A stretch of DNA of 37,948 nt from Planctomycetaceae bacterium (lineage in GTDB: Bacteria; Planctomycetota; Phycisphaerae; Phycisphaerales; SM1A02), in assembly GCA_027488415.1 (NCBI GenBank), contig JAIYBS010000210.1, forward strand, positions 1-37,948, written 5' to 3'. Position 1 is the first letter of the stretch. Every line of letters starts with the position of its first letter. Positions 9,256 to 29,987 of this stretch are shown here, piece by piece. The position numbers and the translations under genes were made by a program. Below the pieces are notes generated by a model. That model saw only the letters and a program-made list of their open reading frames with translations. It did no database searches and was not told the origin of the DNA.

Positions 9256-9259
9256 CGCC

Positions 9260-10237: not shown

Positions 10238-10743
10238 GGCGCCGCCTGCGCGAGGCGCTCGCGTCCCCAGAGGATCCAGCTCGAGTCGGGCAGCGAGTGA
10301 CCCATGCTGCGGAACATGAAGGACAGCTGCGCGTTGTGGTAGAGGGCGTGCGTCGGCACCTGCATGCAGGCGTCGGCGACCGACTGCCTGTACTGCCTGC
10401 CGTCGCGCTCGCGGACGACGATCCGTCCGAGCTCGCGCTCGTCGAGGCGCGCGAGGTAGCCGTCCCAGCGGGTACGCACGTCCGCGAAGGCGGCGCGGAT
10501 CGCCGCGACGTCCGGCAGCTCGGCGGGATTCGGCATCGAGAGCGCCGCGTCGCCCTCGAGGACGCCGATCCAGATGCGCTCCGCGCCCACGAGGTGCGCG
10601 AAGGTCTTGTGCACGCTGCCGATGCCGATCGGGAACTCGCGCCGGAAGCCCTCGTCGCCGAGTGCTGCCGCGGCGTCGAGGGATCGGCCGGTCATCCAGC
10701 GCAGCCAGGCGTGCGCGTCACGGACGGTGTCGAGGCTCTGCAT
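10234..10743 (-). CDS. DinB-family (DUF664-like) four-helix-bundle protein
   Basis: Track ORF. Its TGA overlaps the dehydratase ATG (ATGA at 10234..10237). It has His-containing DinB-type blocks HKTFAHLVGAE and YHNAQLSFMFRSMGH. Confidence 0.7.
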   Translation of the reverse strand: MQSLDTVRDAHAWLRWMTGRSLDAAAALGDEGFRREFPIGIGSVHKTFAHLVGAERIWIGVLEGDAALSMPNPAELPDVAAIRAAFADVRTRWDGYLARLDERELGRIVVRERDGRQYRQSVADACMQVPTHALYHNAQLSFMFRSMGHSLPDSSWILWGRERLAQAAP

Positions 10744-10768
10744 TGCTCGACACGATATCCGCGCCGGG

Positions 10769-11713
10769 TCACTCGGCCGGGATCGCGCCCCACTCGAAGG
10801 ACTGGCGGTAGATCCGGCGGAGGATGTTGACCCCGACGTAGTCCACGCCGCTGACGGCGAGCAGCTTGCCCCGCAGCTCGTCGAAGTGCGCCTCGTCGCG
10901 AACGTTGAACTCGCACTGCACCGAGACGCGACCGGTGCAGGCGCTGAGGAACGCGAGCTCCGTGAACGCCGCGAGCTTCGGCAGCACCGCGGAGATGGGC
11001 TGGCTCAGGTGGAACTGCATCAGGCCCGACAGGTTCAGGTCGACGCGGGGCGGATCCGGAAGCGTGAGGATGCGCACCGTGCCGTCGCTGAGGAGCCTTC
11101 GGAAGCGGTCGGCCGCGCTCGTGGCGGAGATGCCGGTCCGCTGCGCGATGTCGGTGAACGAGATGCGCCCGTCGCGCTGCACCTCGCGGATGATCAGCCG
11201 GTCGGTCCGGTCGATCGTGCGCGGGAGCGGGGCCGAGCCCGTGGCGCGCTCGGGGCCGGCGAAGGCGAGCACCGTCTCGGACCGCACCCGGTACAGCAGC
11301 GGGTTGCCGCGGACCGAGCGGTCGAGGAGGTTGTTGAGCGCGACGCCGTTCTCCGCCACGCCGTAGGCGACCAGGTCGTCCTCGCCGAAGCAGCCGACCA
11401 CGTAGGAGAACTCCGGATGCTTCAGCAGCGACTCCGCGGCGGCGTCGACGCTTCCGCGGACGCGCATGTGCACCGCGAACTGCACCTCGAGGCCGAGCAC
11501 CTCCGGCGGCACGAAGCCGACGATCCGGACGGAGCGCTCCTCGATCAGCCGCGCCAACCGCCGACTGACGTTCGCCTCCGAGATGCCGGTCTGCTGCGCC
11601 AGGTCACGCCCCGACGCGCGACCGTCGGACGCAAGCATGGTGATGAGCTTCCTGTCCGCTTCGTCGAGCGGCGGGAGCGAGGGATCTGAGTATCGTGGCG
11701 GGCTACGGAGCAT
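10769..11713 (-). CDS. Lrp/AsnC-family transcriptional regulator with two tandem HTH+RAM modules
   Basis: Track ORF. Module 1 is DEADRKLITMLASDGRASGRDLAQQTGISEANVSRRLARLIEERSV. Module 2 is DRTDRLIIREVQRDGRISFTDIAQRTGISATSAADRFRRLLSDGTV. Confidence 0.85.
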   Translation of the reverse strand: MLRSPPRYSDPSLPPLDEADRKLITMLASDGRASGRDLAQQTGISEANVSRRLARLIEERSVRIVGFVPPEVLGLEVQFAVHMRVRGSVDAAAESLLKHPEFSYVVGCFGEDDLVAYGVAENGVALNNLLDRSVRGNPLLYRVRSETVLAFAGPERATGSAPLPRTIDRTDRLIIREVQRDGRISFTDIAQRTGISATSAADRFRRLLSDGTVRILTLPDPPRVDLNLSGLMQFHLSQPISAVLPKLAAFTELAFLSACTGRVSVQCEFNVRDEAHFDELRGKLLAVSGVDYVGVNILRRIYRQSFEWGAIPAE

Positions 11714-11942
11714 GTTTTTTGCCCCGGAAACGAAGCCCGGATCAGGATTTCGCGATCTGAATCGGCGTCAGGCCATTGCCTGCCCGTGTGCGTTGCTTGC
11801 CAACGCGGTGCGAGTCTATCGGCACTCCTACCGCCCCGGCTTGCGCACGTTGCGTGGGTTGTAGAAGCGCCGGATTTCATGGTGCATTCCCGGGGAATCT
11901 TGCGCTGTCGGGACTCATTCGCGTGACGGGCTACACTTCGCT

Positions 11943-12032
11943 CGTTCGCTCGGGGCGCGGCCGCATCGTGCGGTCCGCTGAGAAGCACCCGCGGAACCTG
12001 ATCCGGCTCGCACCGGCGTAGGGAAGCGAACG
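11943..12032 (+). promoter_or_regulatory. TPP (THI-box) riboswitch aptamer upstream of thiC
   Basis: CGGGGCGC...GCTGAGAAGCACCCGCGGAACCTGATCCGGCTCGCACCGGCGTAGGGAAGCG matches the conserved THI-box core (CUGAGA; ACCUGAUCYGG...ACCRGCGUAGGGA). P1 forms between CGTTCGCT (11943..11950) and AGCGAACG (12025..12032). The aptamer ends 81 nt before the thiC ATG. Confidence 0.9.
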
Positions 12033-12113
12033 GCCATCGGACCTCGCGGTCCGGCTGTTCGTCCTGCGACCGTCGAGCCCCGGCTGCGCGCGATGCGCGC
12101 AAGGTGTTGACCG

Positions 12114-14012
<1,899 letters not shown>

Positions 14013-16206: not shown

Positions 16207-17337
16207 TCAGGGCTGCCACGCACCGACGAGGACGCCGAGGTCGGCTCCCGTGATCATGTTGTCGCCGGTGAGGTCGGCCGTCGGGTCGAACGCGCCCCAG
16301 AGGCCGACGAGGATCCCGAGGTCAGTGCCGGAGACCCGTCCGTCGCGGTCGAGGTCGGCGGCATGGAAGTTGACCGCGGCCTGGATCCGGAAGGCTGCGC
16401 TGTTGGTGGCGCTGACCACCACGTCGAGCTCGAATCCCTGGTCCGTGATGAGCTGCACGAGCCACGAGGAACCCGCGTCCTCGGCCTCGAACTCGATGCC
16501 GTGGAGGGCGGCGGTCGGGTGCTGCTCGAGCGCCGAGGCGAGCGCGGCCGAGGCGCTCACGGTGGCGGAGCCGAGCGCGGCGACTTCGTCCGCGAGGCGG
16601 GCCGCCTGGTCCGCGGTCGGGACCCAGCGGACGACGTCGAGGACCACCGAGTCGCCGGCGCGCGTGGTGACGAGCACGAGCTCGCCGGCCTTCGCGTCCC
16701 AGTGCAGGGACTCGAGCATCGCGCCGACGTCCTCGGCCTCCGCCTCCGCGGAGAGCGCGGGCGCGCCGGCCGCGGCGACCGCGGCATCGAGCGCGGAGAC
16801 GAAGTTCGCCCCGGGCACCGTCACCTCTTGGTCGTCGTCGGCACCGTGGTGCGGCACGACGTTGCCCGTGACCGAGTCGACGTACACGCGGGCATCGCTG
16901 CCGTCGAACGAGACCTGGTACGCGAGCATCGCGAGCTCGATGTCGAGGCTCACCTTCGAGACCGCGGCGCCCTCGGGACCATGCGGAATGGCGCGCTCGA
17001 CGGCACCGCCGAAGTCGATGGTCGCCTCCGGCAGCATCGAGAGGATCTGCTCGTAGAGGGCGACGTCTTCGGCCGGCGTCGCGGCCTGCTCGACGCCCAT
17101 GACCGCTCCGGACGTCCGGTTGACGCGGACGGACCAGTCGGTCCCGGGCGACTGGAAGAGATCGGCGTCGTACACCTGCACGCCGTTGCGGACGCGCTGC
17201 TCCACCTGCAGGAGCTTGCCGAGGGGAGCGGCGCCGCGTGCTGCCTTCGCCGCGGCGGCGAAGCCGACGTCGGCGGAGGCGGTCGCGCTGGCGAGCGTGA
17301 GCGAGGAGATGGCGAGAATGATCGTCGGGCTACGCAT
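16207..17337 (-). CDS. Secreted PepSY-repeat protein with C-terminal twin dockerin-like repeat
   Basis: Start chosen at ATG 17337 (MRSPTIILAISSLTLASATASA signal peptide) rather than the track start 17397. PepSY-like units are present (VQVYDADL...VRVNRTSGAVMGVE; YQVSFDGSDARVYVDSVTGNVV; further degenerate copies). The C-terminus is ADLDRDGRVSGTDLGILVGLWG...DLTGDNMITGADLGVLVGAWQP (16210..16359). Confidence 0.7.
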   Translation of the reverse strand: MRSPTIILAISSLTLASATASADVGFAAAAKAARGAAPLGKLLQVEQRVRNGVQVYDADLFQSPGTDWSVRVNRTSGAVMGVEQAATPAEDVALYEQILSMLPEATIDFGGAVERAIPHGPEGAAVSKVSLDIELAMLAYQVSFDGSDARVYVDSVTGNVVPHHGADDDQEVTVPGANFVSALDAAVAAAGAPALSAEAEAEDVGAMLESLHWDAKAGELVLVTTRAGDSVVLDVVRWVPTADQAARLADEVAALGSATVSASAALASALEQHPTAALHGIEFEAEDAGSSWLVQLITDQGFELDVVVSATNSAAFRIQAAVNFHAADLDRDGRVSGTDLGILVGLWGAFDPTADLTGDNMITGADLGVLVGAWQP

Positions 17338-17472
17338 GGATCTGGTTCCTGGTCTGGAAGGCGTGGAACGGGCGATGCATCCAAACGACGGATGCACCCC
17401 AATTGGTGGAGCACGCCGCTTCAGACCCAGATACCTCTTGGACTCGCGGATCTCGTCCGAGCGACCGGGAAA

Positions 17473-18951
17473 TCAGTCCCAACGCCCGAGAAGCAGGCCG
17501 AGGTCGGCGCCGGAGACCCGACCGTCCCGGTTCAGGTCGCTGCGGGATCCGAGCGGCGGCACGAGGCCGAAGTCGCCGAGGAGGATCCCGAGGTCACCCC
17601 CGCTGACGCGCCCGTCGAGGTTCAGGTCCGCGAACCGCGGGGCCGCGGGCGCGAGCGCGGTTGCCGCGGACGCATCGAGTCGGCCGCTGCCGATGAGCTT
17701 CTCGTAGCCCGGGTTGATGGAGTCGATCGGCATCGAGGCGCCCGTGATCGACTCGATGATCGCGTCGTCGATCGCCGCGAGCGGCGTCGTCGCGTCGGGC
17801 CACTCCGGGTGCTGCGCGCGCACGAGCGCGGCCACGCCGCTGGCGAAGGCCGTCGCGAAGCTGGTGCCTTGCCAGGCCGCCCAGCGGCCGCCGGGCACCG
17901 GGCCGACGACAGCCTGCGACGTGACGATCGCTCCGCCGGCGACGAGGGTCGTGCCGGGTGCGCAGAGGTCCGCCTTCGGCCCGAAGTTCGAGAAGGTCGC
18001 GACCCCGTCGACCGGGTCGGTCGCGCACACCGCGAGGACCGTGGTCAGGCCGGCGGGGTACTCCTCGGGATCGATCCGGGCCATGTTGCCCATCGCGGCC
18101 GCCACGACGATGCCCTTGAGATCGGCCTCGTGCACCACGTCCTCGAGGAGCGCGGAGCTGTAGGTGCTTCCGAGGCTGAGGTTGATCACGTCCGCCCCGC
18201 GATCGATCGCGAAGGCGATTCCCTTCCCGATGGTCCAGAGGTCGCCGACGCCGTCGCTGTTCAGCACGGTCACCGGCAGGATCCAGGCCTCCGGCGCGAC
18301 CAGGTGCACGAGGCCCGCGACGAAGGTGCCGTGGCCGACCTGCTCGTCCACGAGTCCGTCGCCGTCGTCGTCGAGTCCGTTGGGCGCGTCGGACGTTCCG
18401 GCGCCGGCAACGAAAGAGGCGCCGCCCGACTGCACCCGCCCGCCGAACGCCGGATGCTGTTCGTCGATGCCGGTATCGAGCACGGCGATGAGCGTGCCTT
18501 GCCCGAGGGACCTGCCGCGCGAGCTCGGAAGCCCGATCACGCCGCCCCCGTACTGCGATTCGAAGATCCCGGGATCGAGGTCGAACTGGCTGAGCCAGAA
18601 GCTGTCGGTGCGTCCCTCGCCGCTCTGGCCGAGGTAGTTGAGCTCTGCCCACACGGCGGCGCCGAGGGCGACCTGGGCCGCGCAGAACGCAGAAGCCGTC
18701 TCGTCGGTCTGCCCGCGCCGAAGCCGGTACGACAGCATGTGGATCGGCCGTCCCGCGATCGCGTCGATGACCTCGACCCCGTCGAAGGTCGCCCGAGCGG
18801 CCGAGACGAGCGACGCGAGCGCGGCATCGTCGGCCACTCGCACCATCATCCGCTCGGGCACCAGCGGATCGCGAAGCGCGTTGCCGGCGAGGGCATCGCG
18901 CGACGCAGCCGCGAGGAGCGCCGAGGCGAGGATGGTGAGCGATCGGTTCAT
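17473..18951 (-). CDS. Secreted S8 subtilisin-family serine protease with C-terminal twin dockerin-like repeat
   Basis: In-frame ATG 18951 within track ORF 17473..19962, with AGGA about 10 nt upstream. The signal peptide is MNRSLTILASALLAAASRDALA, followed by a propeptide-like segment. Triad contexts are AVLDTGID (D159), GHGTFVAG (H207) and GTSFATA (S363), with GN at 287-288. The tail is ADLNLDGRVSGGDLGILLGDFG...SDLNRDGRVSGADLGLLLGRWD (17476..17631). Confidence 0.85.
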   Translation of the reverse strand: MNRSLTILASALLAAASRDALAGNALRDPLVPERMMVRVADDAALASLVSAARATFDGVEVIDAIAGRPIHMLSYRLRRGQTDETASAFCAAQVALGAAVWAELNYLGQSGEGRTDSFWLSQFDLDPGIFESQYGGGVIGLPSSRGRSLGQGTLIAVLDTGIDEQHPAFGGRVQSGGASFVAGAGTSDAPNGLDDDGDGLVDEQVGHGTFVAGLVHLVAPEAWILPVTVLNSDGVGDLWTIGKGIAFAIDRGADVINLSLGSTYSSALLEDVVHEADLKGIVVAAAMGNMARIDPEEYPAGLTTVLAVCATDPVDGVATFSNFGPKADLCAPGTTLVAGGAIVTSQAVVGPVPGGRWAAWQGTSFATAFASGVAALVRAQHPEWPDATTPLAAIDDAIIESITGASMPIDSINPGYEKLIGSGRLDASAATALAPAAPRFADLNLDGRVSGGDLGILLGDFGLVPPLGSRSDLNRDGRVSGADLGLLLGRWD

Positions 18952-18977: not shown

Positions 18978-21773
18978 TCAGGGAGCCAACGCAAAGAAAG
19001 CCGCCCAATGCACGAACGGAACGCCGCGATTGTCCGCGTCCCGCTGCAGTTCGTGGAGCAAATCGGCCATCGTCCGTTGGTTCGCGGACGTCGGCGAAAC
19101 GGACCATGCGCGGTGGAACGCGGTCATCAGCGCCGCGCCGTCCGCATCGTGCGTGGACCACATGGTCGCGATCGCCTGCGCGATGCCTGCCCCGCAGAGC
19201 GCGCGAAGCACGCCCGAAGTTTCGTGGCCAGCGCCGACGTGCACCCGGCCGGTCTCGCATCCGCTCAGCACGACGTTGGCGCCGGCCACGCCGAGGCGAG
19301 CCAGCTCCCGCGCGCCGATCCAGCGATCCGCCATCCGGATGCCTGCTGCCGCGGGGTGCGCCGAGTCGAACCGGCCGTGGGTCGCCACGTGGAGCAGCGA
19401 GGCCCGGGGTGCCGCCTCGGCGAAAGCGGCCGCGGTCGCGTGAGCGCCCCCGAGCTCGGTCACGTCGGCACCGGCCAGCCGGAGGATCGCCGCGATCTCT
19501 GCTCCCTCCGACTCGATCCGGGGCGCGAAGGAGTCCGCGACGGAGACGACGAGTGCGCTCAGCGCACCCGCTGCGCTCGCACCGGGGCGCCGTCGACGTT
19601 CGACGAAGGCGGACAGGCTCGGCGAGTACGACGTGCACGGTGCGCCGCTCCCTCGCTCGAGCGCATGGAAGGGGACGTCGCAGAGCGGGCCGTAGGGAAC
19701 CACGATGCGCACGGGCGCGCGGCGGGCGGCCTCGGGAAGCGGGTCGAGGAGCAGTTCGCGCAGCCGTGCGGCGCACTCGTCGATCTCGCGCCGCATCCGC
19801 TCCTCCCGCTGCGGCGAGCACGCCAACGCGGGGCGACGCAGGAGGAAGCCGAGGCGGTCGGCGGCCGCGCGGGCGTCCGCGGTCCTGCAGGCGACGGTCG
19901 CGTCGATCTCGCCGGAGGGATGCACGGCGAAGCAGGTGGCCGCGTCGCCGTCGGCATGCCACGCGAGGATCACCTCGCCCGGGCGCAGCGCGGCCGCCGC
20001 CGCCGACGGCGCGAGTGCGGCGCGCGGCTCCGTGACCGGGCGCCGGGACTCGAGCCTGGACTCGATGTCACGGACCGTGGACCGCCATTCGTCGAGCACG
20101 ATCCGCCGTTCGCCCTGCCTCGGCGGTCTCGTCAGTCGTGCATACGCAGCCTCGAGCTCCGCCTCGAGTGCGCGGGCCGCCGGGTCGTCGGACGCTCCGG
20201 CGGCGGCGAGCATGGAATCGAGGAGACCCCGGTCCCGGGTGCGCTCCACCGCCTCGAGCGCCGCGGCAGGGGACCCCGAACGGATGGCCGCCTTGACCGC
20301 GATCGCAGCCACGCGCGACCGCCGACCGATCGCCGCACCCCGCAGGCGCTCGGCCTGCAGCGAGCCGCGGAGCTCCTCGGTGATCCCGATCGCGGCGATC
20401 GCGTCCTCGCCGGCGCCGGCCGCGTCGCCCTCGGCAAGCCGCAGCGCGGCGCGCGTCTCGAGCGAGTCGGCGATGAGCGGTGCGATGCCGAGCCGTCGCG
20501 CATCCTCGACCGCCGCGAGCACCCGGGCGGGCGCGTCGGCGAGGGCTGCCTCGACGGCCCAGGCGGCAGCGAGCTGGTTCGCCCGCGCGCGGGCGACCTC
20601 GTCGTCGGTGGACGCCACCGCCGCATCGGCACGCTTCACCGCATCCTCCGCGCGCCCTTCCGCCGCGTCGGCCGCGGCCGCGGGCAGCAGGGCGAGCGAC
20701 GCCTGTGCGGGATTTCCGAGGCGCTGCCAGCGCTGCGAGGCGCGCTCGGCGGCGAGCGCCGCATCCGCGGATCGCCCGAGGGCGAGCAGGGATCGCGCGA
20801 TCACGTCCTCCGCCCGGGCGCATTCCCAGGCATGGCCGATGCGCTCGAGGGCGATCGAGGCGCGGCGTGCGGATTCGAGCGCATCGTCGGCGGCCCCGAT
20901 CGTCTCGAGCAGCTCGGCCTCCTCGACGTCGAGCCGGGCGGCGTGCCCTCCCGCGCCTTCCCCGGCGAGCAGGGACCGCGCCTCCGCGAACGAGGCGAGC
21001 GCGGAGGCTGCCTGGCCTGCGCGTGCGCGCAGGTCGGCGAGGTTCCCGAGGACGAGTCCCGCCGCGAAGCCCTGCCGGGCACGACCGAGGAGCTCGGAGG
21101 CGCGCGTGAACGACGCCTCGGCATCGGCGATCCGTCCGAGCGCGAGCAGCACCTCGCCGCGCGAGTTCTCGATCTGCCCCGCGACGTGCGCGTCGCCGCC
21201 GAGCACCGGCAGCGCGGCATCGAGCGAGGCAAGCGCCTCGGCATTGCGCCCGAGGAGGCGCAGGACGTTCGCGAGGTTGACGTCGGCGCGCGCCGCGAGG
21301 ACCGGCTCGCCGGCCGCCCGGAAGCTGTCCCTCGCGCGCATGCCGCGGTCCGCCGCATCGAACGGCCTCCCCGACTTTGCGAGGGGGTGCATCGACGCGA
21401 CGTCGGCGCGTGCCGCGTCGACCGCGCTTCCCGAGGCGATCGCCTCGGCGCGACTTCGGTCGGCGGCGGTCAGCGCATCCTCGAGGCGCCCGCCGTACGC
21501 GAGCGAGTGGGCGAGGATCCGCGATGCGCGCGCGGCGCGGATGCCCGCGCCCGCTGCGTGCGCGGCCGCGTGGATGGCGTCGATCGCGTCGGTCACGAGC
21601 GCGAGCTCGCGGGCCATGCGCCGCTCCGCGCTCTCGAGGAGCGCGTCGAGCGCAGCATCACGGTCTGCGTGCAGCGCCGCAAGCCACCCCGCGCGCGCCG
21701 TGGCCGGGAGCGTTGCCGCCTCGTCGAGCCAGCGGTCGGCGGCTTCCGGGCCGATCCGACCCGGCGTGCTCAT
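18978..21773 (-). CDS. TPR-repeat / CHAT-domain (caspase-fold, clan CD) protease-like protein, 931 aa
   Basis: In-frame ATG 21773 within track ORF 18978..22157, overlapping the upstream stop (ATGA). About 600 aa of Ala/Leu-rich TPR-like helices precede a C-terminal CHAT block: VVPYGPLCDVPFHALE...LLHVATHGRF (His codon 19377..19379)...NVVLSGCETG (Cys codon 19257..19259). No signal peptide is apparent. Confidence 0.85.
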   Translation of the reverse strand: MSTPGRIGPEAADRWLDEAATLPATARAGWLAALHADRDAALDALLESAERRMARELALVTDAIDAIHAAAHAAGAGIRAARASRILAHSLAYGGRLEDALTAADRSRAEAIASGSAVDAARADVASMHPLAKSGRPFDAADRGMRARDSFRAAGEPVLAARADVNLANVLRLLGRNAEALASLDAALPVLGGDAHVAGQIENSRGEVLLALGRIADAEASFTRASELLGRARQGFAAGLVLGNLADLRARAGQAASALASFAEARSLLAGEGAGGHAARLDVEEAELLETIGAADDALESARRASIALERIGHAWECARAEDVIARSLLALGRSADAALAAERASQRWQRLGNPAQASLALLPAAAADAAEGRAEDAVKRADAAVASTDDEVARARANQLAAAWAVEAALADAPARVLAAVEDARRLGIAPLIADSLETRAALRLAEGDAAGAGEDAIAAIGITEELRGSLQAERLRGAAIGRRSRVAAIAVKAAIRSGSPAAALEAVERTRDRGLLDSMLAAAGASDDPAARALEAELEAAYARLTRPPRQGERRIVLDEWRSTVRDIESRLESRRPVTEPRAALAPSAAAAALRPGEVILAWHADGDAATCFAVHPSGEIDATVACRTADARAAADRLGFLLRRPALACSPQREERMRREIDECAARLRELLLDPLPEAARRAPVRIVVPYGPLCDVPFHALERGSGAPCTSYSPSLSAFVERRRRPGASAAGALSALVVSVADSFAPRIESEGAEIAAILRLAGADVTELGGAHATAAAFAEAAPRASLLHVATHGRFDSAHPAAAGIRMADRWIGARELARLGVAGANVVLSGCETGRVHVGAGHETSGVLRALCGAGIAQAIATMWSTHDADGAALMTAFHRAWSVSPTSANQRTMADLLHELQRDADNRGVPFVHWAAFFALAP

Positions 21774-22300
21774 GGCAGCTCGAGCCCATCGACGAGGATC
21801 GTGCGGGAACCGACGGACGCGACCAGCTGCACCTCGCGCGCCCGCGAGGCGAACTCGAACCGGCCATCGTCCGTGACCGGCAGCTCGCGGCCGGACTCGT
21901 CGCCCTGCTCGCGCACGAGGAGCCGGGTTCGGCTTCCCGTCTCTGAGCCGGTCACCATCCCGCGGACGAGCACGGTCCCGTCGCCCTGCGCGTGGCTCTC
22001 GACGTCGAGCTCGACGCCCGGCGCGACGGGCGCGCCAAACACGCGCTGCCGGAGCGTCGACGAGGCGCGGAATCCGGGTGCCGCGCCGGCGAGCCGGTCG
22101 TGCAGCAGGACGGCCTGGACGGCGTCGCTGGCCGCGCCGAGCAATTCGGAGAACCACCGATGGCGCGGGACCCCGCCCCGGGCGAGCTCGGCCCGGCCGA
22201 CGGCCTTCACGCGTGCGATCGCTTCCGTCGAAGCGCCTGCCTGCGAGGGATCCCTCAGGGCTCGGGCGAGGAGGGATTCGAGGTCACGGGGTGCGGTCAT
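21770..22300 (-). CDS. Small soluble protein (176 aa): helical N-half plus carboxypeptidase-regulatory-like beta-sandwich C-half; candidate sigma-factor partner
   Basis: In-frame ATG 22300 within track ORF 21770..22891, 38 nt after the ECF sigma stop. Its stop is coupled to the CHAT ATG. There is no hydrophobic TM stretch and no HxxxCxxC motif. The C-half VLVRGMVTGSETGSRTRLLVREQGDESGRELPVTDDGRFEF resembles CarboxypepD_reg-type domains. The start codon is uncertain. Confidence 0.6.
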   Translation of the reverse strand: MTAPRDLESLLARALRDPSQAGASTEAIARVKAVGRAELARGGVPRHRWFSELLGAASDAVQAVLLHDRLAGAAPGFRASSTLRQRVFGAPVAPGVELDVESHAQGDGTVLVRGMVTGSETGSRTRLLVREQGDESGRELPVTDDGRFEFASRAREVQLVASVGSRTILVDGLELP

Positions 22301-22338
22301 GGGCTTGTTCCATCCGGTGGGAGGGCTTGGCGGGGTCC

Positions 22339-22923
22339 TCAGATACGTCCGGGTCCGGGCGATTCCGGGGATGCCTCCGGATCCGTCCCGAATCCCGCCT
22401 TCGCAAGCAGTTCCCGGAGCTTTCCGAGGCAGCGCGCGCGGGTGGGCCCGATCGACCCGACGGGCATGCCGAGCTCCGCGGAGATCCTCGGGTACGACGG
22501 CGAGTCTTCCCGGAAGAGCGCGGTGAGCAGCGATCGGCAGGGCTCGCCCAGGCGCTCGAGCGCCTCTCGCACCGCATGCATCGACTCGAGGTCGGCCGCC
22601 CGTTCCGGGCTCGGCTCGGCGAGGCTCGCGAAGTCCCCGACGAGGTCCACCGGCCGGTTCCGCGCCCGCGCCACGCGCCAGCTCTCGCGGTGCGCGCTCG
22701 TCAGGAGCCACGACGTCACCCGCTCCGGGTCGCGAAGCTCTTCGAGGTGTCGGAGCGCCGAGAGCAGCACCGTCTGCGTCACGTCGTCGCAATCCTCGGC
22801 CGGGAGGCGGCAGGAGCGCGCCACGCTCCAGACGAGCCGCTGGTAGCGGTCGACGAACTCGTCCCAGGCGCGTGCATCGCCGCGCCTGCACCGCTCCACG
22901 ATGTCCCGTGGGTCCTTCTCCAT
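22339..22923 (-). CDS. ECF-type RNA polymerase sigma-70 family factor
   Basis: Track ORF. Region 2 is RYQRLVWSVARSCRLPAEDCDDVTQTVLLSALRHL...SWLLTSAHRESWR. Region 4 is CRSLLTALFREDSPSYPRISAELGMPVGSIGPTRARCLGKLRELL. Confidence 0.9.
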   Translation of the reverse strand: MEKDPRDIVERCRRGDARAWDEFVDRYQRLVWSVARSCRLPAEDCDDVTQTVLLSALRHLEELRDPERVTSWLLTSAHRESWRVARARNRPVDLVGDFASLAEPSPERAADLESMHAVREALERLGEPCRSLLTALFREDSPSYPRISAELGMPVGSIGPTRARCLGKLRELLAKAGFGTDPEASPESPGPGRI

Positions 22924-22927
22924 GGCT

Positions 22928-24148
22928 TCAGCGCGCCATCGCGCGCTCGACCTCGTCGGCCGTGCGCGGGATCGACGGCGTGAGCACCTCGTGCCCGCCC
23001 TCGGTGACGGCCACGTCGTCCTCGATTCGGATGCCGATCGACTCCTTCGGCAGGTAGACGCCCGGCTCGATGGTGATCACCGCGCCCACCTCGAGCGGCG
23101 CGTCGGGGGATGCGTCGTGCGTCTCGAGCCCGAGGTGGTGGCCCATGCCGTGGATGAACGCGTCGCCGAGCCCGGCGTCCGCGATCACCTTGCGGCCGGC
23201 GGCGTCGACCTGCGCGAGCGTCGCGCCCGGGCGCACCGCGGCGATCGCAGCGGCCTGCGCGCGCAGGACCGTGTCGTAGAGCTCGCGCTGGCGCGCCGTG
23301 AAGCGGCCCGAGACGGGGAGCGTGCGGGTCACGTCGGCCGAGTAGCCCGCGTGCTTCGCGCCGCTGTCGAGCACCACGAGCTCACCGTCGACGAGCGGGC
23401 GGTCGTTGGCGTGGTAGTGGAGCACCGTGGCGTTGAAGCCGCCGCCCGCGATCGTCCGGAAGGCGAGCTCCCGCGCGCCGTTGGTCCGGTACGCGTGCTC
23501 GACGCACTCCTGGAGGTCGAACTCGTTCATGCCCGCGCGCATCGAGCGCATCGCGGCGGCGAAGCCGGTCGCGGTGATGCGTCCGGCCTCGCGGATGCAG
23601 GCGATCTCCGCCGCGCTCTTCGCGGCTCGCATGCGCAGCAGCAGGTCGCTGCGGTCCTGGACCTGCGTCCCGGGGACGCGCTCTGCCTGCGCGCGCAGGA
23701 TCGCGAGGTCGGCGGAGACCGGTGAGTTCCACTGCGCGAGCGGCATCAGGCACGCGAGCGTGCGGGACCGGCGCGTCCCCTCGAGGAGCAGCCGGCCGAG
23801 CATGCCGGTGCGCATCACCGTGTCGAAGCCGGTGCGCGCGCGGAGCGCGGCGCCGAGCTCCTCGCGGAAGCCGTCCCACTTCTCGACCTCGGGGTTGAGC
23901 GGGCGCAGGAGCAGCACGGCGCGCTTCGCGGCAACCGGGTTCGACGGGTCGAGCAGCAGCATGGCACCCGGCTCGTCGACGATGCCGGTCAGGTACTCGA
24001 AGTGCGCGTGCGGCTTCCACGGGTGGTGGAGCGACGGGTCCGCCTCGCCGGCGGGCACGACCGCGACCGCGCAACCGAGCTCCTGGAGCAGTCGCTCGCG
24101 TCGCGCGCGGAATTCCTCGTGGGTGATCGTCGGGGCTGCGTTTGCCAT
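22928..24148 (-). CDS. pepP: Xaa-Pro aminopeptidase (M24B, aminopeptidase P family)
   Basis: Track ORF with VLDSGAKHAGYSADVTRT, HGMGHHLGLETHD, ITIEPGVY and IRIEDDVAVTE, the five metal-ligand contexts of M24B. Confidence 0.9.
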   Translation of the reverse strand: MANAAPTITHEEFRARRERLLQELGCAVAVVPAGEADPSLHHPWKPHAHFEYLTGIVDEPGAMLLLDPSNPVAAKRAVLLLRPLNPEVEKWDGFREELGAALRARTGFDTVMRTGMLGRLLLEGTRRSRTLACLMPLAQWNSPVSADLAILRAQAERVPGTQVQDRSDLLLRMRAAKSAAEIACIREAGRITATGFAAAMRSMRAGMNEFDLQECVEHAYRTNGARELAFRTIAGGGFNATVLHYHANDRPLVDGELVVLDSGAKHAGYSADVTRTLPVSGRFTARQRELYDTVLRAQAAAIAAVRPGATLAQVDAAGRKVIADAGLGDAFIHGMGHHLGLETHDASPDAPLEVGAVITIEPGVYLPKESIGIRIEDDVAVTEGGHEVLTPSIPRTADEVERAMAR

Positions 24149-24172
24149 GGGGGCAGGGTACCGCCCCGGCCG

Positions 24173-27100
24173 TCAGTGCTTCGCGGGCTCGGCGGCGGGC
24201 GCGGCGGCATCGGCGCCCCACACGCGGTCGCGCACGATGACGAGCAGCGCGTAGAAGACCGGCACGATCACGAGCGAGAGCAGGGTCGACACCGCGAGTC
24301 CGACGAGCACCGTGACGCCGATCGAGCGCCGGGCGTTCGCGCCGGCGCCGGTCGCGATCACCAGCGGCACGACGCCGAGGATGAAGCTGAACGCGGTCAT
24401 CAGGATCGGGCGCAGGCGCAGCCGGGCCGCGTCCATCGCCGCCTCGACCGGCGACTTGCCGTGCTCGCTGCCCTCCTTCGCGAACTCGACGATCAGGATG
24501 GCGTTCTTCGCGGCGAGGCCGATCAGCATCACGAGGCCGATCTGCGCGTAGACGTCGAGCGGCATGCCCAGCACGCGCAGCCCGGCGAGCGCGCCGAGCG
24601 CCGCGAACGGCACCGCGCCGACGACGAGCACCGGGAGCGTCCAGCTCTCGTACTGCGCGGCAAGGAACAGGAACACCGCCACGATCGCCAGGGTGAACAC
24701 GATCGGCGCGGCGTTCGAGGACTTCCGTTCCTGGTAGGTGATGCCCGTCCACTCGTAGGCGAGGCCCGGCGGCAGCACGCGCTCGCAGAGCTCCTCCATG
24801 AAGGCGGTCGCGTCGCCGGAGCTCACGCCCGGCGCGCCCGCGCCGTTGATGGCGACGGTGTCGGTGACGTTGTAGTGCGTGAGGTTGTCGGGCCCCGTCG
24901 TGGTGCGCGCGTGCGCGAACGCGGAGAACGGGATCATCCTCCGCTCCTTGTTCATCACGTAGAGGCGGTCGAGGTCCTCGGGCGCCATGCGGTTCGGCGC
25001 GTCGGCCTGCACGTACACCTGGTAGACCTGGTTGAACCGGTTGAACTGGTTGACGTACGCGCTGCCGAAGTTGAGCTGCAGCACCGTGAACGCGTCGGCC
25101 ACCGTGACCCCGAGCCGCTGCATCTTCGCGCGGTCGATGTCGAGCCAGACCTGCGGTACGTCCTTCTGGAAGAAGGTCGAGACGCCCACCACGCGGTCGG
25201 GGTGCTTGGCGGCCTCGGCGATGAGCTCCTGCGCGGCGGCGAACAGGCGGTCGGTGCCCAGGCCCGCGCGGTCGACGAGCTGCAGCTGGAAGCCGCCGAC
25301 GGTGCCGAGGCCGGGGATCGAGGGCGGGTTGAACGGGAACGCCATGCCTCCCGGGAGCGTCCAGAGCAGGGGCTGGAGCCGGCGCACGATCGCGCCGGTC
25401 GTGTGCGCGGCGCCGGGGCGCTCGTCCCAGGGCTTGAGCACGGGGATCAGCACGCCCGAGTTCGACTGCGGCGCGTTCGCGAGGAAGTTGGTGCCGTTGA
25501 TCTCGATGACCGTCTCGACCTCGGGCTGCGCGGCGACGATCTCTCGCGCCTGGGCGGCGAAGGCGTTGGTCCGCTCGAGCGGCGTGCCCGCGGGCAGCTG
25601 GTAGGCGACGAAGAAGTAGCCGTTGTCCTCGTCCGGCACGAACGCGGTGGAGGCGGTCGCGACGAGCCAGAGCGCGGCGGCGATCGCGAGCGCGAAGACC
25701 GCGCCCGCCACCATCCAGCGGCGGATCAGCCAGCCGACGAGCGCCTCGTAGGCGAGCTCGGTGCGGCCGAACGCGCGGTTGAAGGCGCCGAACGGCCCGG
25801 TCTTCGCCATCTGCCGCGGACGCAGGAAGATCGCCGCGAGCGCCGGGCTGAGTGTCAGCGAGTTGATGCCCGAGAGGATCACCGAGATGGCGATCGTCAT
25901 CGCGAACTGGTTGTAGAGCTGCCCCGTGACGCCAGGCATCAGCGCGGCGGGCACGAACACCGCCGCCAGCGAGAGCGTGGTCGCGACGATCGGGCCCGCG
26001 ACCTCCTTCATCGCGGCGCTCGCCGCCCTGAACGGGTCGGTCTCGCCGTGCTCGAACTTGCGCTCCACGTTCTCGACGACGACGATCGCGTCGTCGACGA
26101 CGATGCCGATCGCGAGCACCAGCCCGAGCAGCGTCAGCGTGTTGATCGAGAAGCCGAGCCCGAGCATCACCGCGAAGGTGCCGATGATCGACACCGGGAT
26201 CGCGATCATCGGGATCAGCGTCGTCCGGAAGCTCTGCAGGAAGACGTAGATGATGACGAGGACGAGGACCGCCGCCTCCCAGAAGGTCTCCACGACCTCG
26301 GAGATGGAGGCGCGCACGAACTTCGTGGTGTCGTAGTTGATCCGGTACTCGATGTCCTGCGGGAAGTCCTTCCTGAGGGACTCCATCGCGGAGTTCACGG
26401 CCTTGGCGATCTCGAACGCGTTCGAGCCGGGGAGCTGGAAGATGCCGAGCAGCGCGCCGGTCTCGCCGTCCTGCTTGCCGACGCTCGCGTAGTTCGCGGC
26501 GCCGAGCTCGACGCGCGCGACGTCCTTCACCTGCACCGTGCCGCGGTCGTCGCTGCGGACCACGATCTCCTCGAAGTCGCGGACCTGCTGCAGGCGGCCG
26601 AGCGCGTTGACCTGCATCGTGAAGGCCGGCGCCTGCGCGTCGCCGTACGGGGCCGCGCCGGCCTGGCCGCCCACCGCCTGGCGGTTCTGCTCGGAGATGG
26701 CGAGGTAGACCTCCTGCGGCTGGATGCCCATCGACGCGAGGCGCTGCGTGTCGAGCCACACGCGCATCGAGTACTGCCGCAGGCCGAAGTTCGCGACCTG
26801 CGCGACGCCCGGGATGCGCTGCAGCGTCTGCACGATCGCGATGTCGGCGTAGTTGGAGAGGAAGTCGCCGTCGTAGGTGCCGTTCGGGCTCCGAAGGCCG
26901 ACGACCTGGACGAAGTCGGTCGACTGCTTGCGCACCGCGATGCCCTGCTGCTGCACCTCCGGGGGGAGCTGCGGGATCGCGGTCTGCGCGTAGTTCTGGA
27001 CGTCGACCGTGCCGATCGAGAGGTCGTAGCCGACGTCGAAGGTGACGGTGATGACCGCGTTGCCGCCGTTCACCGAGTTGCTCGACATGTAGATCATGCC

Positions 27101-27319
27101 GGGCACGCCGTTGATCTGCCGCTCGAGCAGGCGGGTCACGACGTCCGACGTCGTGGACGCGGACGCGCCGGGGTAGAACGCCGTGACCTGCACGGTCGGC
27201 GGTGTGATCGGCGGGAACTGCGCCACCGGCAGGATCGTCATGGACAGCCCGCCGGCGATCACCATCAGCAGGGCGATCACCGTGGCGAAGATGGGGCGCC
27301 GGATGAAGAAGTCGATCAT
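24173..27319 (-). CDS. RND efflux transporter permease (AcrB/MexB-like, HAE1 family)
   Basis: Track ORF of 1048 aa. It has the canonical N-terminus MIDFFIRRPIFATVIALLMVIAGG, two large periplasmic loops and hydrophobic TM blocks. The start overlaps the MFP stop (ATGA at 27316..27319). Confidence 0.95.
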   Translation of the reverse strand: MIDFFIRRPIFATVIALLMVIAGGLSMTILPVAQFPPITPPTVQVTAFYPGASASTTSDVVTRLLERQINGVPGMIYMSSNSVNGGNAVITVTFDVGYDLSIGTVDVQNYAQTAIPQLPPEVQQQGIAVRKQSTDFVQVVGLRSPNGTYDGDFLSNYADIAIVQTLQRIPGVAQVANFGLRQYSMRVWLDTQRLASMGIQPQEVYLAISEQNRQAVGGQAGAAPYGDAQAPAFTMQVNALGRLQQVRDFEEIVVRSDDRGTVQVKDVARVELGAANYASVGKQDGETGALLGIFQLPGSNAFEIAKAVNSAMESLRKDFPQDIEYRINYDTTKFVRASISEVVETFWEAAVLVLVIIYVFLQSFRTTLIPMIAIPVSIIGTFAVMLGLGFSINTLTLLGLVLAIGIVVDDAIVVVENVERKFEHGETDPFRAASAAMKEVAGPIVATTLSLAAVFVPAALMPGVTGQLYNQFAMTIAISVILSGINSLTLSPALAAIFLRPRQMAKTGPFGAFNRAFGRTELAYEALVGWLIRRWMVAGAVFALAIAAALWLVATASTAFVPDEDNGYFFVAYQLPAGTPLERTNAFAAQAREIVAAQPEVETVIEINGTNFLANAPQSNSGVLIPVLKPWDERPGAAHTTGAIVRRLQPLLWTLPGGMAFPFNPPSIPGLGTVGGFQLQLVDRAGLGTDRLFAAAQELIAEAAKHPDRVVGVSTFFQKDVPQVWLDIDRAKMQRLGVTVADAFTVLQLNFGSAYVNQFNRFNQVYQVYVQADAPNRMAPEDLDRLYVMNKERRMIPFSAFAHARTTTGPDNLTHYNVTDTVAINGAGAPGVSSGDATAFMEELCERVLPPGLAYEWTGITYQERKSSNAAPIVFTLAIVAVFLFLAAQYESWTLPVLVVGAVPFAALGALAGLRVLGMPLDVYAQIGLVMLIGLAAKNAILIVEFAKEGSEHGKSPVEAAMDAARLRLRPILMTAFSFILGVVPLVIATGAGANARRSIGVTVLVGLAVSTLLSLVIVPVFYALLVIVRDRVWGADAAAPAAEPAKH

Positions 27320-28464
27320 CGCGCGGCCTTGTCCATCCGCTCCTGCACCTGCGCCTCGACGGCGGCGCGCATCGCCTCGGGCGAGACGGTCTGCGCGCCG
27401 TCGTAGAGCTTCTGCATGCCCTCGACGACCACCTGGTCGGCGGCGCCGATGCCCTCGGTGATGACGATGCCGGCGCCGCCGCGGGGGCCGGTCTTGACGA
27501 CCTTCTGGCGGGCCTTGCCCTCGCCGTCGACCGTCCAGAGCGTCGCCGCCGCGGTCTGGTAGACGATCGCCTGCTCGGGCACGGTCACCGCGCCCTCGAG
27601 CCGGTCGACCTCGAGGCGCACGTTCACGTAGGCGCCCGGAGCCATCAGCCGGTCCGCGTTCGGCACCTCGAGCCGGGTGCGGATCGTCGCGGTGTCACGG
27701 TTCACGGTGTTGTCGAGGAACACGACCTTGCCGTTGCGGCTCCAGCCGCCGCCGGGGAGCGACGCGACCGTCGAGGCGTCGCCGTCCTTGAGCATGCGCC
27801 GGAGCGCGGGGATGTCCATGTCGACCGGCTGGAACTCGACCCACATCGGGTCCATCTGCCGGACGGTGACGAGCACCTGCTGCGGCGTGACGTAGGTGCC
27901 CGGGTAGATGTTGGTCGCGCTGGCCTGCCCGTCCGCCGGGCTCGCGACGCGCGTGAACGAGAGATCGAGGTTCGCCTGGTCGAGGAGCGCGCGCCTGGCC
28001 GCGAGGTTCGCAGTGGCGACGCGCTCGTTCGCGATCAGGCGGTCGAACTCCTGCTGCGAGATTGCGCTCACCTCGACGAGCGGCCGGTTGCGCGCCACCA
28101 TATCGGAGGCGTTGCGGAGCTCGGCCTGGACGATCGCCACGTCGGCCTTCGCCTTCTCGACGGCGACCTCGTAGGGCCGCGGGTCGATGACGTAGAGCAT
28201 CTGGCCGTCCGTCACGTCCTGGCCGTTGGCGAAGCCCTGCGCGTCGATCCAGCCGGCGACGCGCGGGATGACGTCGACGGTACGGACGCTCATCGTGATG
28301 CCCGGGTAGTCGCGGTGCACCGGCACGTCGGCGACCGTCGGCGTGACGGTGCGCACGGGCGCTGGCGGCGGCCCGGCGGGCGCGGCCGGCGGCTTGGAGC
28401 AGGCCGCCGCGGCGAGCGCGGCGCAGGCGAGGGTGGCTCGGAGCGTCTTCATGGTGTGGCTCAT
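27316..28464 (-). CDS. RND efflux periplasmic adaptor (membrane fusion protein), lipoprotein
   Basis: In-frame ATG 28464 (alternative 28452) within track ORF 27316..29832, 5 nt after the OMF stop. The signal plus lipobox is LACAALAAAACS. It has the coiled-coil hairpin and beta-barrel pattern of HlyD/AcrA proteins (YVIDPRPYEVAVEKAKADVA...LDLSFTRVASPADG). Confidence 0.85.
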   Translation of the reverse strand: MSHTMKTLRATLACAALAAAACSKPPAAPAGPPPAPVRTVTPTVADVPVHRDYPGITMSVRTVDVIPRVAGWIDAQGFANGQDVTDGQMLYVIDPRPYEVAVEKAKADVAIVQAELRNASDMVARNRPLVEVSAISQQEFDRLIANERVATANLAARRALLDQANLDLSFTRVASPADGQASATNIYPGTYVTPQQVLVTVRQMDPMWVEFQPVDMDIPALRRMLKDGDASTVASLPGGGWSRNGKVVFLDNTVNRDTATIRTRLEVPNADRLMAPGAYVNVRLEVDRLEGAVTVPEQAIVYQTAAATLWTVDGEGKARQKVVKTGPRGGAGIVITEGIGAADQVVVEGMQKLYDGAQTVSPEAMRAAVEAQVQERMDKAAR

Positions 28465-28469
28465 CGGGG

Positions 28470-29987
28470 TCAGCCCTCGGTCCGCCCGCCGTTCGGGGCG
28501 AGGAAGTCGTTGGCCGTCGGGGTCGGGTTGAAGCGCCGCACGTCGTCCACGGCGGGCGGCATCGGGCTCATCTCCCAGCCGCCGCCGAGCGACCGGTACA
28601 GCTCGACGCAGTTCTGCGCCATGAGGCCTTCTGCCTGCGCGAGTCCGTCGCGCGCGACGACGTACGCCTGCAGGTATTGGATGAGCCGAGTGATGTCGAT
28701 CGTGCCGGCGCGGTACTGGAGGAACGCCAGGTCGAACGCGGCCTGGATCTCGCGGGCGCTGTCCGTGTAGCTGCTGCGCACCACGCGCGCGGCGTTGAAC
28801 GACGCGATCGACGACTCCACCTGGTTCACGGCAGTGATCACGGCGAGCTGGTACCGCAGCAGCGCATCGGCCGCCCGCGCCTTCGACTGGATCACGCGCG
28901 CCTCGGCGGCCCCGGTGAGGATGTCCATGAACCGCCAGGTCACGGCCGGGGTGATCCCGTAGGTCATGTTGTTGTTCCAGTCCGCGAGGCTGTCGAAGTT
29001 CGGCGTCTGGATGATGAAGTTGCCGGTGAAGCTGAAGCGCGGCAGGTAGCCGGCCTCGGCGATGCCGATCTGCGCGGTCGCGGCTTGGAGCGCGCGCTCG
29101 GCAGCCTGCACGTCGGGCCGCCGCTCGAGGAGCGTGGCGGGAAGCCCGACGGAGATCGGCATCTCGACGTTCGGTACCGGGCGGTCCTCGGTCACGACCT
29201 TGCGCACGTGCTCCGGGGTCTCGCCGAGCAGGATCGCGAGCCCCGCAACCTGCTGCGCGATCAGGCCGTCGAAGCGGTTCGCGTCGCCGAGCGCGGATGC
29301 CTGGCGGGAGCGGACCTCCGCCAGCTCCACCTTGGAGCCGGCCTGGAATCGCACCTTCTTCTCGATGGCGTCGACCAGCTTGCCGTAGCCCGTGGCGAGG
29401 TCGCGGAACGCCGCGCGCTGCGACTGCAGCTGCCGGATGGTCACGTACGCCTGCGCGACCTCCGCACGCACGCTGACGAGCGCCGCGCGGTACTGGGCGG
29501 CACTCATCTGCACGTTCGACACGCCCGACTCGATCTGCCGTCGCACCGCGCCCCAGACGTCGAGCTCCCAGTACGCGCTCGCGACGTTCCACTGCCAGTT
29601 GTTGAACGGCTCGCGCAGCGCGTCCGGGTTCGGCACGCCGAGCTGGTTCGCGTCGATCCGGCGCCGGTCGTAGGCGATGCCCGTGTTGATGTCGGGAAAC
29701 AGCTTCGAGAAGTCCACCGTGTACTGCGCGCGGTACGTCTCGAGCGCGAGCAGCGAGCGGCGCAGGTCGATGTTCTGCAGGTCCGCGCGAGCCACGAGCT
29801 CGTCGAGCACGGGGTCGCGGAAGTTCTGCCACCAGCGCTCCGAGCGCGGCTCGGTCGCGTCGAGGCCGGGCCCGCGCGTCGCGGTGAACCGCTCGCCCGC
29901 GGCGATCTCGGGCCGCTGGTAGTCAGGGCCGATGGCGCAGCCGCCGAGCGCGAGCGCGGCGAGGATCATGGATGCGGTCGTCCGCAT
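28470..29987 (-). CDS. Efflux outer-membrane factor lipoprotein (NodT/OprM family)
   Basis: Track ORF. MRTTASMILAALALGGCAIGPDYQRPE is the lipobox plus the typical NodT start, followed by two TolC-type repeat halves. Confidence 0.9.
   Translation of the reverse strand: MRTTASMILAALALGGCAIGPDYQRPEIAAGERFTATRGPGLDATEPRSERWWQNFRDPVLDELVARADLQNIDLRRSLLALETYRAQYTVDFSKLFPDINTGIAYDRRRIDANQLGVPNPDALREPFNNWQWNVASAYWELDVWGAVRRQIESGVSNVQMSAAQYRAALVSVRAEVAQAYVTIRQLQSQRAAFRDLATGYGKLVDAIEKKVRFQAGSKVELAEVRSRQASALGDANRFDGLIAQQVAGLAILLGETPEHVRKVVTEDRPVPNVEMPISVGLPATLLERRPDVQAAERALQAATAQIGIAEAGYLPRFSFTGNFIIQTPNFDSLADWNNNMTYGITPAVTWRFMDILTGAAEARVIQSKARAADALLRYQLAVITAVNQVESSIASFNAARVVRSSYTDSAREIQAAFDLAFLQYRAGTIDITRLIQYLQAYVVARDGLAQAEGLMAQNCVELYRSLGGGWEMSPMPPAVDDVRRFNPTPTANDFLAPNGGRTEG

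Follow-up and report, generated by a model that had tools for sequence, protein, structure and literature searches.

The contig JAIYBS010000210.1 of the Planctomycetaceae bacterium assembly GCA_027488415.1 was analysed over a stretch of 37,948 nucleotides (positions 1 to 37,948, G+C content about 72%; hereafter the window), and on its minus strand it carries a compact unit of four genes. They encode a sigma factor of the extracytoplasmic function (ECF) class, a small protein from a family of putative soluble anti-sigma factors, a protease that combines a tetratricopeptide repeat (TPR) array with a caspase-like CHAT domain, and a subtilase of the S8 family that is predicted to be exported. The four genes form a conserved cassette that is common in Planctomycetota. 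An earlier note on this DNA had singled out the first three genes as a possible CRISPR-less counterpart of the Craspase circuit, the arrangement of type III-E CRISPR loci in which a TPR-CHAT protease controls an ECF sigma factor; it missed three things: the subtilase as the fourth gene, the descent of the small protein from anti-sigma factors, and a DNA element conserved where the sigma and small genes meet. Our preferred reading, to which we give somewhat less than an even chance, is that the cassette constitutes a self-contained ECF signalling device in which the CHAT protease cleaves or captures the anti-sigma factor and thereby frees the sigma factor. Here we describe the conservation of the cassette, the properties of its members and the rival ways in which they may be connected, and we compare it with sigma-control systems that have been characterised elsewhere.

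Conservation of the four-gene cassette

The sigma gene (22339..22923, minus strand, 194 amino acids) starts 4 nt past the stop codon of an M24 aminopeptidase gene. A gap of 38 nt separates it from the small gene (21770..22300, minus strand, 176 amino acids), whose TGA overlaps the ATG of the TPR-CHAT gene (18978..21773, minus strand, 931 amino acids) in the sequence ATGA, and the S8 subtilase gene (17473..18951, minus strand, 492 amino acids) completes the unit. For the first three, co-directional open reading frames (ORFs), the coordinates, the gap and the overlap are exactly those given in the earlier note. Its statement that the locus lacks a CRISPR context was reproduced as well: no cas domain was detected among the window ORFs scanned, and neither a CRISPR-like array nor a tRNA was found in the window. 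Judged from their listed Pfam families, the related loci likewise contain no cas genes or CRISPR arrays.

The small protein and the sigma factor were traced into public assemblies, and the related loci were numbered L001 to L020. The order sigma factor, small protein (174-225 amino acids), TPR-CHAT protein (926-973 amino acids) and S8 subtilase recurs in L005, L007/L008, L009/L010, L013, L014, L015, L016/L017 and L020. Every contig of sufficient length carries the complete set (the window, L005, L007, L009, L012-L016 and L020), and the trio expected by the earlier note is hence conserved in related genomes. In L011 and L018/L019 the contig stops right after the small gene, leaving only the sigma and small genes visible. 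The rearranged locus L012 is instructive: its sigma and small genes lie on one strand and its CHAT and S8 genes run divergently on the other, which resolves the cassette into two sub-units that still stay together and pairs the small protein with the sigma factor. The adjacency of sigma and small gene is kept in all loci, L012 included. Since the full set occurs wherever the contig suffices and the flanking genes differ entirely between loci (cytochromes, lipopolysaccharide (LPS) genes, tRNA synthetases, OPT transporters, transglutaminase), the linkage is conserved far beyond chance.

How common the cassette is became apparent through the sigma factor. A profile search with the sigma subfamily placed 7,781 of 8,000 scored candidates at E<=1e-10; the best 120 relatives score at least 250 bits, are 40-99% (mostly 40-53%) identical to the window sigma factor and come, by their source names, from Planctomycetota and Phycisphaerae, plus one 'Chloroflexi' metagenome-assembled genome (MAG). 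All five sampled homologues (41-49% identity) head the same gene order, which could be confirmed through the S8 gene in four of them; the fifth, P0098 (L018/L019), lies on a contig that stops past the small gene. An exhaustive profile search of 1.84 billion proteins with the small protein returned 14 representatives, three of which are spurious repeat proteins, and the rarity that this search alone would suggest is misleading. Sampling via the sigma factor, with copies beside the sampled sigma genes that still align, reveals a common cassette whose small protein diverges fast. A tblastn search of plasmids with the CHAT protein returned only two unrelated Nostoc CHAT proteins.

A scan of a genome collection for the locus yielded a single match, the Planctomycetota MAG L006, which is syntenic with the window including the resistance-nodulation-division (RND) efflux and M24 peptidase genes and, by its ORF listing alone, has the same cassette order. 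The CHAT gene of L006 is interrupted and appears as two ORFs (8513..9859 and 9941..11806, region 8513..11806), indicative of a frameshift or assembly error, or else of a pseudogene. The window, L001 and L006 are syntenic, and overall the cassette looks like a widespread and vertically kept lineage feature. In the window the sigma gene lies 3' of the M24 aminopeptidase gene (PepP-like) and an OEP/MFP/AcrB efflux operon (22928..29987, minus strand), an arrangement that is common to L001 and, by ORF sizes, to L006 and that is not found in the distant loci; in the window's clade the sigma gene may be read through from the efflux operon.

The proteins and a shared DNA element

The sigma factor matches Sigma70_r2 (2.6e-11) and TIGR02937 (sigma70-ECF, 1.6e-17, residues 19-173), and a profile of its orthologues gives full-length matches to the ECF sigma factors sigma-H (6in7), RpoE (1or7) and CnrH (4cxf) in the PDB (5e-15). 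By these matches it is an ECF (group IV) sigma-70 factor with sigma2 and sigma4 regions only, about 190 amino acids in length, in agreement with its first identification. Two cysteines of the sigma4 region, C129 and C165 (in the contexts PC..LL and RARC), are invariant in six orthologues of 44-85% identity, and a redox or metal role is possible for them.

The small protein of the window has no match in Pfam or NCBIfam. The G+C content at third codon positions (GC3) of its ORF is 0.88, and compared with the L001 orthologue (78% identity) 50 of its codons differ by synonymous changes only and 39 by non-synonymous ones, most substitutions falling on third positions; judged by its GC3 and by this synonymous excess the ORF is a real gene, as the earlier note had assumed. 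A typical family member is about 205 amino acids long. Its N-terminus, E-x-L-I-A-F-A-A-G-E-L ... V-E-A-x-L-A-x-S-P, follows the pattern of anti-sigma N-termini. The orthologue in L018 contains HLDACTRC, a version of the HxxxCxxC zinc motif, and matches zf-HC2 (PF13490) with 29.7 bits against a gathering cut-off of 22.2 bits (6.9e-7), and a consensus of the long-form N-terminus that we composed from the alignment reaches 31.8 bits (1.5e-7). Six of 19 members match zf-HC2 below threshold; the window protein does not match it. Aligned by hhalign, the family profile and L018 are related with a probability of 99.8% (E 4.9e-29), and against the PDB the profile finds weak N-terminal matches to RslA (E 0.39) and to the anti-sigma domain of DdvA (E 1.7), in addition to a C-terminal match to a transthyretin-like (TTR-like) domain of NOMO (E 0.01). 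CarboxypepD_reg is matched weakly by 3 of 19 members (best E 0.011). On the strength of the zf-HC2 scores, the zinc motif of L018, the hhalign result and the RslA and DdvA matches, the family is assigned to putative soluble anti-sigma factors that descend from the zinc-binding anti-sigma (ZAS) type, fused to a CarboxypepD_reg-like beta-sandwich.

The HxxxCxxC motif is absent from the window protein and from all 21 aligned members; the L018 orthologue alone was noted with it. The window's clade (the window, P0001-P0011 and L005) moreover lacks about 35 alignment columns of the anti-sigma domain, spanning the region of the zinc motif. The suggestion that the 176-residue protein is an anti-sigma factor is partly supported by the homology of the family to zf-HC2/ZAS proteins, although the copy in the window is without the central part of the anti-sigma domain. 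Five columns are invariant across the aligned family, and two of these are G76 and R78 of a G-x-R motif (G76-F77-R78, GFR in the window; codons 22067..22075, minus strand). Both are invariant in alignments of 13, 19 and 21 sequences, down to about 20% identity, F77 being usually kept; the long forms read DSRxQxAxAGFRG at this position, and L018 has the variant GAR. An AlphaFold2 (AF2) model from the 21-sequence alignment, with a mean predicted local distance difference test (pLDDT) score of 74, comprises three helices, a linker of residues 72-80 below 50 and an eight-strand sandwich at about 90. The G-x-R motif, the best conserved feature of the protein, sits in this low-confidence linker, ahead of the beta-sandwich, and is a candidate docking or cleavage site.

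The 931-residue protein combines a TPR array of about 640 residues (TPR_12 match) with a CHAT domain (Pfam, 8.8e-30, residues 666-928), the architecture that had been read from its sequence at the outset. The catalytic dyad falls in the contexts HVATHG (His799, codon 19377..19379) and VLSGCETG (Cys839, codon 19257..19259), and both residues together with their surroundings are invariant in nine orthologues of about 30% identity. With a profile of the CHAT orthologues, the best non-TPR matches in the PDB are the Csx29 structures 8d9f/7x8a (1.2e-9) and Desulfonema Csx29 (2.3e-6). Aligned pairwise with chain 8d9h_E of Scalindua Csx29, the CHAT protein places His799 and Cys839 on His540 and Cys582 of the chain, and the dyad that the earlier note had described as intact accordingly has its counterpart in a His and a Cys of Csx29. 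Allowing for an offset of 45 residues in the construct, the two chain positions become His585 and Cys627, which we take to be the published catalytic numbering of Csx29. No signal peptide was found in the CHAT proteins, and the protein is predicted to be a cytoplasmic protease of the caspase fold (clan CD) with an intact dyad. The small and CHAT genes overlap or adjoin each other in most loci.

The subtilase matches Peptidase_S8 (PF00082, 3.5e-40), and its triad D159, H207 and S364 is invariant in nine orthologues. Its gene comes next after the CHAT gene, as a rule overlapping it by 4 nt (L005, L007, L013, L015, L016 and L020), and stays with it in the rearranged L012; this linkage is as tight as that of the other members. 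A hydrophobic, signal-like stretch occurs within about the first 30 residues in eight of nine S8 orthologues, starting near residue 18 in L005. No conserved transmembrane (TM) or signal segment was found in the sigma, small or CHAT proteins of nine loci, and the small protein in particular has no conserved hydrophobic segment, in line with the absence of a TM segment reported for the window copy. Given the lack of export signals in the first three proteins and the N-terminal hydrophobic segment of the S8 protein, the sigma factor, anti-sigma factor and CHAT protease are predicted to reside in the cytoplasm and the subtilase to be exported.

An FG-GAP protein is often encoded after the subtilase (L009, 15399..16976; L015, 13069..; L020, 12969..14198) and is fused to it in L012 (293..2740) and L014 (11229..13730); it may be a fifth, facultative member of the cassette. 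The FG-GAP/dockerin protein of the window is encoded far from the cassette, at 5817..8162. In the window the S8 gene is followed by a gene for a PepSY-domain protein (16207..17397, minus strand; PepSY 1.7e-9) with a dockerin-like C-terminus, which is not conserved in the distant loci and is possibly a clade-specific accessory gene. The window subtilase itself ends in dockerin-like repeats. The repeat, DLNxDGxVxGADLGxLLGxWG, ends several apparently secreted proteins of the window (17473..17700; 16207..16400; 5817..8162; 9108..9252), namely the subtilase, the PepSY protein, the FG-GAP protein (Dockerin_1 match) and the product of ORF 8298..10319, which contains a 78-bp tandem repeat, and it may be a lineage-specific anchoring or sorting module.

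The sequence CGTATYT is common to the regions between the sigma and small genes. The window copy, CGTATCT (22341..22347, minus strand), overlaps the stop codon of the sigma gene and precedes the ATG of the small gene by 46 nt. All 12 loci compared, among them L020, which was examined only once the pattern was fixed, have GTAT[CT][TAC] at a distance of 46-73 nt ahead of the small gene; the same test upstream of the sigma genes gave one locus out of 12. The joint chance probability, calculated from the loci's own motif densities, is about 1e-22, which is an upper bound on significance because the motif was found by eye. A second copy (CGTATTT) occurs in L012, where it is intergenic and lies some 180 nt upstream of the start of the separated CHAT gene, and in L005 GTATCC lies between the S8 gene and the next gene (L005 position 5724, plus strand). 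Upstream of the sigma genes no common ECF-type promoter motif was found; TATAAT-like boxes occur in several loci. In its core CGTATYT is similar to the CGTA -10 element found in some ECF promoters, for example those of Bacillus subtilis sigma-W. It is a candidate for the -10 element of an internal promoter of the small-CHAT-S8 unit, or for an operator.

The 38-kb window holds only three copies of GTATYT: one at the sigma/small junction, one (GTATCT, 17429..17434, minus strand) 32 nt upstream of the PepSY gene, forming with it the region 16207..17434, and one (35623..35628, plus strand) ahead of a glutathione peroxidase gene (35673..36359), at a distance of 45 nt. The PepSY and glutathione peroxidase genes may share the cis element of the cassette; alternatively, AT-rich hexamers may be concentrated in the promoters of a GC-rich genome. 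A second ECF sigma gene (34951..35622, minus strand; Sigma70_ECF PF07638, 2.5e-28), divergent from the glutathione peroxidase gene, starts right beside the third copy.

Elsewhere in the window, a thiamine pyrophosphate (TPP) riboswitch (11941..12041, plus strand; Rfam RF00059, 62.6 bits, E 3.9e-10) lies directly upstream of thiC (12114..14012; ThiC_Rad_SAM 5.7e-180), an ordinary arrangement.

Possible modes of regulation

According to the reading that we favour, the small protein, a soluble and zinc-less descendant of the ZAS type, would keep the sigma factor inactive in the cytoplasm. The TPR-CHAT protein would be sensor and switch at once, a cue received through the array of about 640 residues activating His799 and Cys839, whereupon the CHAT domain would cut, or at least engage, the exposed linker of the anti-sigma factor, most likely at or beside R78 of the G-x-R motif. 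The freed sigma factor would then drive a promoter marked by CGTATYT ahead of the small-CHAT-S8 unit, resulting in more of the exported subtilase as the effector and in re-synthesis of the anti-sigma factor, i.e. negative feedback. Speaking for this reading are the conserved linkage, the ancestry of the small protein, the invariant G-x-R motif, the invariant CHAT dyad with its counterpart in Csx29, the predicted compartments, the CGTATYT element and the published precedents of Craspase, DdvA and ECF54, whereas sigma binding, the cut and its site, the cue and the dependence of the element on the sigma factor are inferred. That the CHAT protease cuts the anti-sigma factor is plausible. Arginine is the P1 residue of metacaspases and gingipain. 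The same P1 preference is stated for separase (PMC11506125). A sharper version, that the cassette is a CRISPR-independent caspase-like switch in which the TPR-CHAT protein senses a protein or peptide cue, cleaves the zinc-less anti-sigma factor at G-x-R and frees a sigma factor that drives the subtilase, and that it is a counterpart, possibly a relative of the evolutionary source, of Csx29/Csx30/sigma and DdvA, we regard as distinctly doubtful.

Several points weigh against regulated release of the sigma factor by the CHAT protease. An arginine cut in this protein is an analogy only. The loss of about 35 residues from the anti-sigma domain makes binding of the sigma factor by the window copy less certain than by the long forms. 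A PDB fold search with both AF2 models returned only generic Ig-like beta-sandwiches, none with E<=0.001. No -35 partner was found for CGTATYT at a fixed or ECF-typical spacing, only variable A-rich patches 9-14 nt upstream. Finally, if both proteases were outputs and not regulators, the tight coupling of the CHAT and S8 genes would be accounted for just as well.

The last point leads to a different view of the cassette, which we consider improbable on balance: the sigma and anti-sigma factors alone would be the regulator and the CHAT protease and subtilase only their regulon, the anti-sigma factor being inactivated by other means such as a ligand or partner of the beta-sandwich or general proteolysis, the TPR-CHAT protein cleaving other cytoplasmic substrates and the subtilase acting outside the cell. 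The translational coupling of the two protease genes in most loci agrees with this, as do the separate divergent CHAT and S8 unit of L012 with its own upstream CGTATTT and the position of the element in front of small-CHAT-S8 and, largely, not in front of the sigma gene; moreover, Casas-Pastor et al. warn that the conserved neighbours of ECF groups may be targets and not regulators (PMC7826278). However, a pure regulon leaves the invariant G-x-R motif of the linker and the inactivation signal of the anti-sigma factor unexplained, the anti-sigma factor being soluble and in most members without a zinc or redox motif, and in every characterised CHAT/sigma association that we found in the literature the CHAT module acts upstream of the sigma factor. 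Control might also be exerted by partner switching without any cleavage, the TPR array or the CHAT cleft binding the G-x-R linker or the beta-sandwich and titrating the small protein off the sigma factor, while the protease acts elsewhere, for example on the cytoplasmic S8 precursor or on the sigma factor itself. TPR arrays are described as modules of protein-protein interaction, the CHAT module of DdvA was captured at rest and mutation of its dyad left no phenotype in the conditions used (PMC11506125), and the overlap or abutment of the small and CHAT genes in most loci would suit co-translated stoichiometric partners; yet the strict invariance of His799, Cys839 and their surroundings at about 30% identity argues that catalysis matters, and we judge this option to be quite unlikely.

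A role in anti-phage defence, with the cassette as a stand-alone relative of Craspase or Borvo whose CHAT protein senses infection and whose sigma factor turns on defence genes, seems to us very unlikely. The CHAT domain has a weak PADLOC match to BovA (4.9e-6) and the S8 protein matches the PADLOC 'subtilase' model, and a protease is linked to a sigma factor for defence in Craspase, CalpL/CalpT/CalpS and DdvA alike. Against this, all loci are flanked by housekeeping and envelope genes (RND efflux, tRNA synthetases, LPS, glycosyltransferases) and not by defence islands, there is no nuclease, NTPase or other defence domain nearby, and the cassette seems widespread and vertically kept, with synteny between the window, L001 and L006.

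Relation to known sigma-control systems

A stand-alone cassette of sigma factor, anti-sigma factor, TPR-CHAT protease and S8 subtilase was not described in the literature searched, but its gene context is already catalogued. The CHAT/ECF association, whose novelty the earlier note had left unverified, is not new: according to a single sentence of a review, which cites Huang 2015 and Casas-Pastor 2021, proteins with carboxypeptidase, subtilase and CHAT domains are conserved beside ECF54 sigma factors, for which proteolytic control without an anti-sigma factor has been proposed (PMC8999054). The same three domain types follow the sigma gene here, the carboxypeptidase-regulatory-like one being weakly matched. 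In the classification of Casas-Pastor et al. (2021, PMC7826278), ECF54 (Actinobacteria) and ECF58 (Planctomycetes) form sister groups, neither with a known regulator, and the two sources disagree on whether ECF54 or ECF58 is found beside an Fe-S protein (PMC8999054; PMC7826278). The relatives of the window sigma factor fit the phylum of ECF58 but the gene context reported, in that one sentence, for ECF54, and the likeness drawn here is one of context and not of sigma group. The cassette is therefore a planctomycete member of a known ECF context and not a new class. What is added here is the S8 gene as the fourth member, the cryptic anti-sigma identity of the small protein, the invariant G-x-R motif of its linker and the CGTATYT element. 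Whereas the review sentence describes ECF54 without an anti-sigma factor, the family of the 'carboxypeptidase-like' protein carries a cryptic zf-HC2 domain in the cassette; ECF54/58-type sigma factors are listed without an anti-sigma factor, their control being unknown or merely proposed to be proteolytic, and the 'carboxypeptidase-like' neighbour now becomes the candidate anti-sigma factor. If the cassette is indeed a stand-alone switch, it would supply the ECF54/58 groups with both the missing anti-sigma factor and a regulatory mechanism.

The type III-E Craspase provides the closest parallel in the protease. In that system Csx29 cleaves Csx30 and thereby frees an ECF-like sigma factor (PMC10028731); a TPR-CHAT protein is encoded beside the sigma factor and a sigma-binding inhibitor, and a similar trio occurs here, in which the small protein would play the part of the inhibitor. 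Among CHAT proteins of solved structure, Csx29 is the nearest in sequence (the 1.2e-9 profile match, with the His and Cys aligned). The three-part logic that the earlier note had borrowed from Craspase stands as far as the homology of the CHAT proteins and the conserved linkage are concerned, but the unit comprises four genes and its inhibitor is unrelated to Csx30: it is a ZAS-derived protein of 176-210 residues that differs in length and architecture, and there is no Csx30 chain among the PDB matches of the small-protein profile (at E<=10 only NOMO, RslA and DdvA). Furthermore, Craspase has Cas7-11, a CRISPR array and Csx31, all three of which the window cassette lacks; the TPR part of the cassette protein is about twice as long; and the subtilase, absent from Craspase, is an obligatory fourth member here. 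A target RNA cannot be the activating signal of the cassette. We also considered a Craspase remnant, i.e. a degraded type III-E locus, which we reject on the absence of cas relics among the ORFs scanned and on the many different housekeeping contexts.

DdvA of Myxococcus xanthus, in which an anti-sigma domain is fused to TPR-CHAT, resembles the cassette in coupling a zf-HC2/ZAS anti-sigma module to a TPR-CHAT module with a canonical His-Cys dyad in the control of an ECF sigma factor, DdvS (PMC11506125). DdvA is, however, a single transmembrane polypeptide with a periplasmic TPR-CHAT part, whereas the cassette encodes separate proteins, predicted to be cytoplasmic, without a TM helix, which rules out an orthologue of DdvA; the similarity of its anti-sigma domain to the small protein is marginal (the E 1.7 match). 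The DdvA regulon is a CBASS/CRISPR defence island, and nothing comparable is found at the cassette. Should the CHAT protease cleave the anti-sigma factor, the control of transcription by caspase-like proteases would extend beyond CRISPR and be a common housekeeping signalling device of Planctomycetota, and the cassette would offer a tractable model for the non-CRISPR CHAT proteases of bacteria, of which little is known according to the DdvA paper (PMC11506125).

The same logic of protease, cleavable anti-sigma factor and sigma factor recurs in CalpL/CalpT/CalpS, whose sigma factor is ECF-like. There the protease CalpL is of the Lon type (SAVED-Lon), activated by cyclic oligoadenylate and associated with type III CRISPR systems without a subtilase, whereas the planctomycete cassette pairs a CHAT protease with a subtilase.

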